Part shown: positions 1 through 1,541 of the stretch, piece by piece
How the letters are laid out: the number at the start of each line of letters is the position of its first letter
Numbering within the stretch: position 1 is the first letter of the stretch
Assembly: GCF_965641715.1 (NCBI RefSeq)
Contig: NZ_OZ282461.1
Origin: Escherichia coli
GTDB taxonomy: Bacteria > Pseudomonadota > Gammaproteobacteria > Enterobacterales > Enterobacteriaceae
Length of the DNA stretch: 1,541 nucleotides
Reading direction: 5' to 3' (one strand)
Notes under the pieces: generated by a model
Seen by the model: only the letters and a program-made list of their open reading frames with translations
What the model was told of the DNA's origin: nothing
Database searches by the model: none
Translations under genes and position numbers: made by a program

Positions 1-37
1 GTGCTCAATGTGGCTTCCGGTTCTCTTCCGCTTCCTC

Positions 38-80
38 GTCGATTCGCTCGCTACGCTCGGTCATCGACTTGCGGCGAGCG
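38..80. other. Hairpin-rich segment resembling what I recall as the primosome-assembly-site (single-strand initiation) region downstream of the pMB1/ColE1 origin
   Basis: Seen in sequence: cttccgcttcctcg (26-39) and ...cgctcgctacgctcggtcatcgacttgcggcgagcgg... parallel pBR322 cttccgcttcctcgctcactgactcgctgcgctcggtcgttcggctgcggcgagcgg (recalled). Dyads gtcgat (38-43) with atcgac (63-68), and cgctcgc (45-51) with gcgagcg (74-80), are preserved despite substitutions. Function is inference. Confidence 0.4.
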
Positions 81-386
81 GTGTCACCTCTCGCATGTTG
101 TCGGTGATCCCGTTGTTGTTCTTTCGGGGATGAGTCGTCAGATAGCCCTTCAAACACGCTCAGAAGCTCTCAGACGCACGAAACGGGTTTTAGATGCCCG
201 TCAGGGCATGGAAGGCGCGAAAAACGCTTACAGAGGCTCTCAGGAGGTCAGGCGCGCCGATACCCCTAACCAGGGGCTTTCAGGTCGCCAGGAACCGCGC
301 CAGCCCCCTGCAAAGCCCATTTGCACGGTACAGGCAGCCACTCGGTTGGTAGGTGGTCGTAGACCGTCGGTGTTACAGCGATGGGG

Positions 387-1275: not shown

Positions 1276-1299
1276 GGGGTGTCGGGGCGAAGCCCTGAC
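1276..1299. repeat. Left arm of a 24-bp inverted repeat (ggggtgtcggggcgaagccctgac); the arm is also an internal hairpin
   Basis: Seen in sequence: the reverse complement of 1504-1527 is ggggtgtcggggtgaagccctgac, matching 23 of 24 positions. Within the arm, gtcggggc and gccctgac are themselves near-complementary. Confidence 0.7.
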
Positions 1300-1340
1300 A
1301 CAGTCACGTAGCGATAGCGGAGTGTATACTGGCTTATTCC
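1276..1340. other. ColE1/pMB1 bom-like origin of transfer (oriT) with putative nick motif CTGG/CTTA at 1329-1336
   Basis: Seen in sequence: ggggtgtcggggcgaagccctgacacagtcacgtagcgatagcggagtgtatactggctta closely resembles the pBR322/pMB1 bom segment gggtgtcggggcgcagccatgacccagtcacgtagcgatagcggagtgtatactggcttaac, recalled from memory. Established knowledge: the ColE1 relaxase MbeA nicks within CTGG/CTTA. The nicked strand was not determined here. Confidence 0.6.
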
Positions 1341-1457
1341 TCTGCAAGCCTTACCAGCCGTGATTTTTGCCAGATTTCGCGCTCTCCACGTTCAACAGCT
1401 CCATCATGTTTTTGCCGTCCGTTCACCGCTAAAACGCCTCAGAAATCGGGACAGGAT

Positions 1458-1500
1458 GTGGGAATGTCGGACCGCGCACGCGCACTCAGACATTCCCCAC
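1458..1500. other. Stem-loop: gtgggaatgtc (1458-1468) pairs with gacattccccac (1489-1500); the loop carries an alternating pyrimidine-purine tract cgcgcacgcgca (1473-1484)
   Basis: Seen in sequence: 7-bp perfect core gaatgtc/gacattc plus flanking G:C pairs with one bulge. No downstream T-run, so it is not a canonical intrinsic terminator. Confidence 0.4.
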
Positions 1501-1503
1501 CTA

Positions 1504-1527
1504 GTCAGGGCTTCACCCCGACACCCC
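1504..1527. repeat. Right arm of the 24-bp inverted repeat (gtcagggcttcaccccgacacccc)
   Basis: Seen in sequence: partner of 1276-1299 with one mismatch; the arms are separated by 204 bp. Confidence 0.7.
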
Positions 1528-1541
1528 GCATCCGTGCGTAA

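Follow-up and report, generated by a model that had tools for sequence, protein, structure and literature searches.

The question raised by this locus is why a long inverted repeat should bracket a nick motif in contig NZ_OZ282461.1 of Escherichia coli (1,541 nt; this whole stretch was analysed and is called the window here). The arms of the repeat are 24 nt each (1276-1299, GGGGTGTCGGGGCGAAGCCCTGAC; 1504-1527, GTCAGGGCTTCACCCCGACACCCC); the repeat search found them complementary at 23 of 24 positions (96%) and separated by 204 nt. Between them lie the nick motif CTGG/CTTA (1329-1336) and a stem-loop with 18-nt arms (1460-1497), the centre of which is an alternating CG/CA tract (about 1473-1486). 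A first-pass annotation made from the letters alone had described all of these elements, and all were recovered at the positions that it gave. The length of the repeat is outside the range of a shuffle control (n = 200, dinucleotide-preserving, whole window): when one mismatch at most was allowed, the longest repeat was 24 nt, compared with a mean of 13.6 nt (standard deviation, 1.7; maximum, 20) in the shuffles. We consider it highly probable, on the basis of homology, that 1276-1527 comprises two convergent origins of transfer (oriTs), a ColE1-type oriT on the plus strand and an I-complex (R64-type) oriT on the minus strand, which share a terminal hairpin.

The window holds the entire sequence, circularly permuted, of a small cryptic E. 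coli plasmid that belongs to the pKL1/Col(MG828) family. It was aligned from end to end, wrapping round, with the circular plasmid NZ_CP182202 (1545 bp) at about 97% identity, and it also aligns with pABU, pJD8, pHUSEC2011-3 and pKL1, all of which are Col(MG828)-typed. The sole credible gene encodes a 159-amino-acid helix-turn-helix Rep (minus strand, 1056-577; repeats lie upstream), and this was the only open reading frame with a hint of a family; no relaxase or mating-pair gene was found in the 1541-bp circle. The rep gene is present in 331 of 5426 complete E. coli genomes (about 6%), and the family includes the 1.5-kb plasmids of strain ABU 83972 and of the 2011 O104:H4 outbreak strain.

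The two halves of the interval

When 1240-1541 was used as the query, the two halves matched different classes of plasmid. Thousands of small ColE1-like plasmids matched about 1269-1339 only, large conjugative MOBP/MPF_I plasmids matched 1443-1528 only, and about 360 plasmids of about 1.5 kb matched the whole interval; no other class matched both halves.

For the left half (plus strand), homology with bom including CTGG/CTTA and a hairpin 5' of the nick were the features sought for a ColE1-type oriT, and both were found. The left arm corresponds to the 5' hairpin module (1276-1299; stem, 1281-1288/1292-1299; GAA loop, 1289-1291; GGGGT before the stem), and it is followed by a recognition segment that extends to the nick motif (1300-1328; ACAGTCACGTAGCGATAGCGGAGTGTATA; assigned by identity with pColG and ColE1) and by the nick motif, which is identical in sequence to that of the ColE1 and pColG bom. 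The identity was 98.3% over 60 nt between the pColG oriT and 1277-1336, and 94% between ColE1 (6647 bp) and 1271-1336; the left arm had previously been assigned to a ColE1-like bom/oriT, and these values of 94-98% bear that out. The hairpin module is identical in pColG, where it is directly upstream of the ColE1-type nick region, and differs at 2 of 24 positions in ColE1, where the matching region adjoins rop and is near the mbe genes. Varsaki et al. are said to have placed the ColE1 nick at CTGG/CTTA in 2003. By homology with the ColE1 nick, we take the plus-strand nick to lie at 1332/1333; the hairpin stem ends 33 nt 5' of this predicted nick, and this layout is common to ColE1 and pColG.

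The distance from the nick to the next shared backbone block is about 94 bp in pColG and about 227 bp in the window, and pColG has no second arm. The extra length of the interval relative to ColE1-type plasmids, about 130 bp, comes from a spacer and the second putative origin, which have taken the place of the sequence 3' of the ColE1 nick. The first-pass annotation had described the corresponding interval of pBR322 as lacking the second arm and as shorter by about 110 bp; checked on pColG, the missing arm and the shorter interval were both seen. As a separate observation on the ColE1-like sequence, window 23-82 is 84% identical to the ColE1/pColG region immediately downstream of bom (tcttccgcttcctcg...gcggcgagcgg). 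That region is presumably the ColE1 primosome assembly (single-strand initiation) site; if 23-82 is also such a site, it would enter the recipient early after nicking at the ColE1-type origin.

The right half, read on the minus strand, has the order GGGGTGTCGGGGTGAAGCCCTGAC-TAGGT-GGGAATGTCTGAGTGCGC-GT-GCGCGGTCCGACATTCCC-ACATCCTG/TCCCG. The right arm corresponds to the 5' hairpin module of an I-complex oriT (1504-1527; local stem, 1504-1511/1515-1522; the equivalent of the 8-bp inverted repeat of R64). Next come an inner 18-nt inverted repeat, here of a form that we call variant C (1460-1497; arms, 1460-1477/1480-1497; the equivalent of the R64 17-bp repeat, in which the arm nearer to the nick is the NikA site), and an I-complex nick region, CACATCCTG/TCCCG (1447-1460), assigned by identity with the oriTs of conjugative plasmids. 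Four features were used to recognise an I-complex oriT, and the right half has all of them: the nick region, a 17-18-bp repeat 8 nt from the nick, a distal repeat with an 8-bp stem, and a homologue located upstream of nikA-nikB. In all of the aligned I-complex oriTs the nicked strand carries a hairpin with an 8-bp stem, then a 17-18-bp inverted repeat, then 8 nt, and then the nick region, and the sequence and position of the right arm are the same throughout. The arms of the inner repeat are complementary at 15 of 18 positions (83%), and pairing by hand assigned one of the three non-complementary positions to a G-T wobble. Its spacing to the nick is the same as in the pESBL-12 oriT, and the repeat itself matches that of the IncK2/Z oriT upstream of nikA and those of pBuzz-like plasmids.

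The identity of the right half was 95.3% with the IncK2/Z plasmid NZ_CP013024, in which the match ends 15 bp before nikA-nikB, and up to 98.8%, among the matches listed, with E. coli plasmids of 118-207 kb. The nikA gene downstream of the match is also annotated as mobA, and the NikB relaxase gene is next to it; in IncI-gamma/K1 and IncI1/B/O plasmids a homologous oriT is likewise located upstream of nikA/nikB. The nick region ACATCCTG/TCCCG is identical in three of the four I-complex oriTs compared (IncK2/Z, IncI1/B/O and IncI-gamma/K1) and differs at 2 of 14 positions in the oriT of a pESI-like megaplasmid. The minus-strand nick is predicted at ATCCTG/T (1452/1451); the R64/RP4 homology on which this placement is based is reportedly that of Furuya and Komano in 1991. 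Note that we do not claim sharp recombination breakpoints exactly at the nicks, as weak similarity on the I-complex side runs about 20-25 nt past the nick by our reading of the alignment. In R64, the required core of oriT consists of the nick region and repeat A (PMC4743918), and NikA binds one arm of the 17-bp repeat, as the title of a 1995 paper by Furuya & Komano, cited in PMC9413875, indicates.

The hairpin module is thus common to pColG (GGGTGTCGGGGCGAAGCCCTGAC) and to the I-complex plasmids, and is 5' of the nick in both. In the window the two origins are convergent, with the hairpins outside, the nicks inside and 119 nt between the predicted nicks. Since ColE1-type and I-complex oriTs share this 5' hairpin module of about 24 nt, their head-to-head placement generates a 24-nt inverted repeat. 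All matches to the spacer between the nick sites (1337-1446), in 512 PLSDB records of about 1.3-3 kb, were to small members of the pKL1/Col(MG828) family.

This arrangement was then followed among relatives. Metagenome and genome collections were scanned for two nick cores at the family spacing, which together with annotated plasmids gave 79 copies; both arms are present in every copy that is not cut by a contig end, except in the pKL1 record, the left arm of which fails the search pattern. Among E. coli genomes, 297 records contain at least 80% of the interval, and further records are cut by the record start. Since both arms and the spacer occur in every untruncated relative examined, with the exception noted, the double-origin architecture is ancestral to the family. 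Sequence diversity was calculated as the mean pairwise differences per site among 47 distinct copies, in which 26 positions are fixed by the search pattern and are uninformative. It was 0.034 per site in the left arm (1276-1299), 0.045 in the right arm (1504-1527), about 0.012 at the unconstrained positions of the ColE1 recognition segment (1300-1328), 0.10 in the spacer (1337-1446), 0.14-0.42 in the flanks and 0.22 in the inner repeat (1460-1497), which is the most variable part; the ColE1 recognition segment is the least variable unconstrained segment in the family. The first-pass annotation had reasoned that arms and spacer present uniformly in all relatives, with ordinary divergence, would indicate an ancestral oriT architecture rather than an insertion or a duplication. 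Their presence is uniform apart from the pKL1 record, and the divergence is not ordinary in the swapped inner repeat.

Two side observations were made in the same scan. Contigs of the family (about 0.4-2.9 kb, several with very low coverage) occur in assemblies labelled Streptococcus, Clostridium, Micromonospora, Bradyrhizobium, Mycobacterium, Flagellimonas and others, for which the most likely cause is contaminated sequencing libraries or reagents, and not a true host range. Some metagenome contigs consist of two or three tandem plasmid copies, some with mixed inner-repeat variants (AB, AC, BC); those of mixed variants may be true heteromultimers, or chimeras that arose when co-resident variants were assembled together.

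As no transfer proteins are encoded, mobilisation would be required in trans, and two routes may be proposed. By the first, the ColE1-like Mbe relaxosome of a co-resident mobilisable plasmid would act on the left origin, and the plus strand would leave from 1333; by the second, NikAB of a resident conjugative plasmid of IncK2/Z or B/O type would act on the right origin, and the minus strand would leave from 1451. The spacer would be the first DNA to enter the recipient from either nick, and the hairpin 5' of each nick would leave last and may act in termination and recircularisation. The earlier guess that the extra arm may serve in single-strand processing or in termination of transfer fits the role of the equivalent hairpin of R64, to judge by the title of Furuya & Komano 2000 (cited in PMC4652767).

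Inner-repeat variants and helper plasmids

The inner repeat (1460-1497) occurs in at least four discrete variants (A-D), each of which is still self-complementary. In an alignment of 25 distinct origins, 97% of the cells were paired, compared with 29-46% when the partner was slid, and, across the variants, both members had changed in five of the seven distal pairs. All four variants occur on Rep backbones at least 99% identical to one another, and the differences between the window (variant C) and its nearest relative (variant A) are mainly at 1461-1500. Variant C matches the origins of IncK2/Z-type and pBuzz-like plasmids, variant A is closest to the I1/B/O type, and variant D matches a ColK-like plasmid. 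Matching large plasmids were also found in the same strain. Strain 110512 has a 1546-bp plasmid and a large plasmid (119-130-kb range) that both carry variant C at 98-99% identity (at least two such strains among the matches listed), and STEC2018-553 likewise has variant C at 98-99% identity on a 2396-bp plasmid, the family of which was not checked, and on a large plasmid of the same size range.

These observations suggest that the inner repeat, which has been exchanged as a cassette among family members, may be a helper-specificity element. A plausible route for such swaps is oriT-oriT recombination, which NikB catalyses according to a citation of Furuya & Komano 2003 in PMC5714925; replacement of the cassette would then involve NikB-mediated recombination at the nick and a second crossover in the shared 24-nt hairpin. 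We put forward only tentatively, and regard as rather doubtful in its entirety, the combined proposal that the origin is modular and re-tunable, so that a fixed ColE1-type oriT exploits mobilisable plasmids while the NikA cassette is repeatedly replaced to match the resident I-complex plasmid. If this were true, the family would be simultaneously a parasite of conjugative plasmids and, by way of mobilisable ones, a hyper-parasite, and one termination module, the 24-nt hairpin, would be common to ColE1-, R64- and CloDF13-type origins.

Alternative explanations and neighbouring features

Several points weigh against the double-origin reading and its extension to helper matching. Both nick positions and both activities rest on homology with other plasmids. 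The spacer is shared with none of the compared ColE1-type or I-complex plasmids. A helper is not identified for every variant; for variant B, carried by pKL1, the best identity among the large-plasmid matches listed was 87.7%, with none above 90%. Co-residence with a matching helper is consistent with helper matching but anecdotal. Finally, the flanks contain ColE1-like backbone (window 23-82, as above, in comparison with pColG), so that the left origin may have arrived by descent.

The last point leads to the strongest competing explanation, that a single origin is active, the remaining one (most plausibly the ColE1-type half) being a relic that was inherited along with a ColE1-like backbone segment. 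It is also favoured by a large survey, the abstract of which describes oriT-only plasmids as hijacking conjugative or mobilisable relaxases 'but not both' (PMC10123127). A relic would be hard to reconcile with two features of the recognition segment: among 47 distinct copies, variation at the 25 of its positions that are free of the search pattern is about one-eighth of that in the adjacent spacer, and the segment stays 94-98% identical to functional ColE1-type oriTs while Rep has diverged to 88%. We therefore regard the relic explanation as unlikely, and prefer that of two origins that would both be used.

A second explanation is that the long-range pairing of the 24-bp arms is itself functional, either in bringing strand ends together for recircularisation or by forming a regulatory structure or a cruciform. 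A transferred single strand would have its 5' end close to one arm and its 3' end close to the other, and pBuzz-like plasmids have the same geometry with the hairpins outside. Folding of the single-stranded region had been suggested by the first-pass annotation as a check; when 1266-1537 was folded as isolated single-stranded DNA, both strands preferred the long-range stem (-56.3 and -62.5 kcal/mol; z-scores, -5.2 and -5.9), and no shuffle folded as well. Even so, covariation between the arms is absent: there are no compensatory changes between them, copies with one to four inter-arm mismatches occur, and the variants on the two sides are independent. Positions 1300 and 1503, just inside the arms, are both changed and unpaired in the window and paired in relatives, and the conservation of the arms is fully accounted for by the need of each origin for its own hairpin. 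The ColK-like plasmid pSCU-106-3, a ColE1-like colicin plasmid, also carries both oriT types (313-398 and 1046-1105), in this case back-to-back and about 650 bp apart, with the hairpins inside, so that a convergent layout is unnecessary for their co-occurrence. A function of the long-range stem is accordingly improbable, and we treat the stem as incidental to the two convergent origins. In passing, the hairpins of pSCU-106-3 are both of the GCGCAGCCATGAC variant and agree at 23 of 24 positions, with one difference near the 5' end; this hints at exchange between modules within the plasmid, but a single plasmid is too little to build on.

A third explanation, which the first-pass annotation had offered, holds that the right arm arose recently as an inverted copy of the bom hairpin, and that there is a single origin. 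As expected of a recent copy, the arms agree at 23 of 24 positions here, and of the 66 family copies in which both are seen, 26 have them identical at all 24. The right arm, however, adjoins a stretch of about 60 nt that has 95-99% identity with I-complex oriTs and no counterpart in ColE1-type oriTs, and the hairpin sequence is itself part of the native I-complex oriT upstream of nikA. Moreover, the arm variants of a plasmid do not covary (GCGCAGCC on the left, for instance, is combined with GTGAAGCC on the right), and no concerted evolution of the two arms was seen in the family copies. A duplication is very improbable, and the right arm is better explained as the hairpin of a second, different oriT, as the attached I-complex-specific sequence suggests. 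The weakest explanation, also raised at first, is that the 252-bp unit is a miniature inverted-repeat transposable element or an insertion sequence remnant beside a ColE1-type nick site; a near-perfect long terminal repeat does bracket a discrete unit and ColE1-type plasmids are without the extra 130 bp or so, but this has next to no likelihood, as there is no target-site duplication (cacttttt is to the left of the left arm and gcatccgt to the right of the right arm, as previously noted), the whole unit and its spacer are confined to the small plasmids of the pKL1/Col(MG828) family with no dispersal to unrelated sites, each arm occurs separately at a fixed place in thousands of plasmids within a different oriT, and the left arm cannot be the end of an element, since it precedes the ColE1 nick also in plasmids devoid of a right arm.

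Other functions of the interval were considered and rejected. A structured RNA was rejected, since neither the interval nor its spacer gave an Rfam match at permissive E-values (the sole hit was a sub-threshold proV match inside rep), and a role as promoter or terminator was rejected, since none was found in a scan of 1180-1541. A coding role was rejected because cassette swaps and indels would break any reading frame across the inner repeat. A 104-amino-acid open reading frame does begin in the spacer and pass through the right arm, and in the close relative NZ_CP182202 an arginine-rich 194-amino-acid 'rep protein' annotated by RefSeq (1-585; window 1453-1541 and 1-520) extends from the I-complex nick region through the right arm into the GC-rich segment. 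This segment (100-520 in the window) is overlapped there by a 164-amino-acid open reading frame (1-495). Neither the product from NZ_CP182202 nor this frame, which covers the same GC-rich region, had a family match in NCBIfam, and the annotation of the former is probably spurious.

With regard to the remainder of the plasmid, the repeat search found two 21-nt direct repeats (1076-1117) upstream of rep, and two 25-nt repeats, each internally palindromic (TAGCTCAC..GTGAGCTA), are located at 1132-1182; the repeats at 1076-1182 are probably Rep binding sites or an operator. Immediately 5' of the left arm, a hairpin with a 12-bp stem followed by TTTTTT (1246-1275) resembles an intrinsic terminator on the plus strand. 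Its sequence is different in pJD8/pKL1-type plasmids with the pairing kept, which indicates compensatory changes; the hairpin was not flagged by a consensus terminator scan, and no plus-strand gene is evident upstream of it. The window appears mosaic when differences are counted in 50-nt bins against pABU-like, pJD8-like and NZ_CP182202 relatives: about 650-1275 (rep and the repeats) follows the pABU-like lineage, and 1276-1541 together with 1-300 follows the pJD8-like lineage.

Significance and comparison with known systems

Plasmids that carry an oriT and no relaxase are a well-known class, and according to a survey (PMC10123127) more than one oriT is present in about 12% of the E. coli plasmids that bear any. 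In the literature searched, no paper was found that links pKL1 or Col(MG828) to a double oriT, nor did we find described the pairing of a mobilisable-type with a conjugative-type origin in this family; the pairing runs against the 'but not both' of the survey quoted above. As the only non-replication DNA of this gene-poor 1.5-kb circle, a double transfer origin would account for its spread. With four interchangeable variants of the NikA site on near-identical backbones, the family offers a natural experiment in which helper specificity could be studied. How conjugation itself is understood does not change.

The two halves may be compared with the systems that they resemble. In the bom of ColE1/pBR322 type, which is used with MbeA (MOBP5/HEN), the hairpin, the recognition segment and CTGG/CTTA are 94-98% identical to those of the window (ColE1 and pColG compared) and the backbone block that follows is shared, but the window has neither the mbe genes nor rop, and 3' of its nick are the family spacer and the second oriT. 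The oriT of R64 (IncI1) has the same order of parts, nick region and hairpin, and conjugative plasmids carry it directly upstream of nikA; the window differs in having no nikA/nikB and in the inner repeat, which is of IncK2/Z or B/O type and not the I1 variant. CloDF13 has a recognisably related hairpin module (at 9752), with the published nick at the 5' edge of the module and a run of T before it. Its nic site is 5'-GGGTG/GTCGGG-3', as cited from Nunez & de la Cruz 2001 in PMC5935869. The 5' edges of the two arms (1276-1287 and 1516-1527; GGGGTG TCGGGG) resemble this site, and comparison of TTTTTGTGGGTGGTCGGGCGTGAGCCTGAC in CloDF13 with TTTTTTGGGGTGTCGGGGCGAAGCCCTGAC in the window arm places the nic motif one base out of register; the two are not identical. 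Each arm might be a weak substrate for a third type of relaxase, which we mention as a lead only.

The oriT mimicry with subtype switching of the staphylococcal pWBG749 family, in which the oriT copies of non-conjugative plasmids are of repeat subtypes that correspond to given helper lineages, parallels the four inner-repeat variants (PMC4652767, PMC8136818). It differs in relaxase family and in host phylum, and in the present family the matching with helpers is suggested by sequence comparison. Tiny plasmids with no relaxase and two oriTs are already known, and pEC156 and pBuzz are the closest precedents. The ColE1-like pEC156, with which pKPN2 and pColG are listed, has no mob genes and two oriTs of different families, one of them R64-like (PMC4743918), and was mobilised via its F-like and R64-like oriTs, each by the matching helper, with efficiencies of 0.24-0.63 relative to helper transfer (PMC4743918). 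In this group the partner origin is F-like and not ColE1-type, and the origins are at separate loci with no bracketing inverted repeat. The cryptic rolling-circle E. coli plasmid pBuzz (1982 bp) is like the window in having no relaxase and two inversely oriented oriTs, and pBuzz was mobilised by a B/O plasmid, as reported from Moran & Hall 2019 (Plasmid 101:10) in PMC9282650 and PMC11389934. The pBuzz-like NZ_AP027664 (1983 bp) likewise has the hairpins outside and the nicks inside, and both of its oriTs have the inner-repeat variant of the right half of the window at 95% identity. The rolling-circle replicon pBuzz has one I-complex oriT in two copies, spaced by about 260 bp, whereas the window combines an I-complex with a ColE1-type oriT, with their predicted nicks spaced as given above, on a pKL1-type Rep/iteron replicon.

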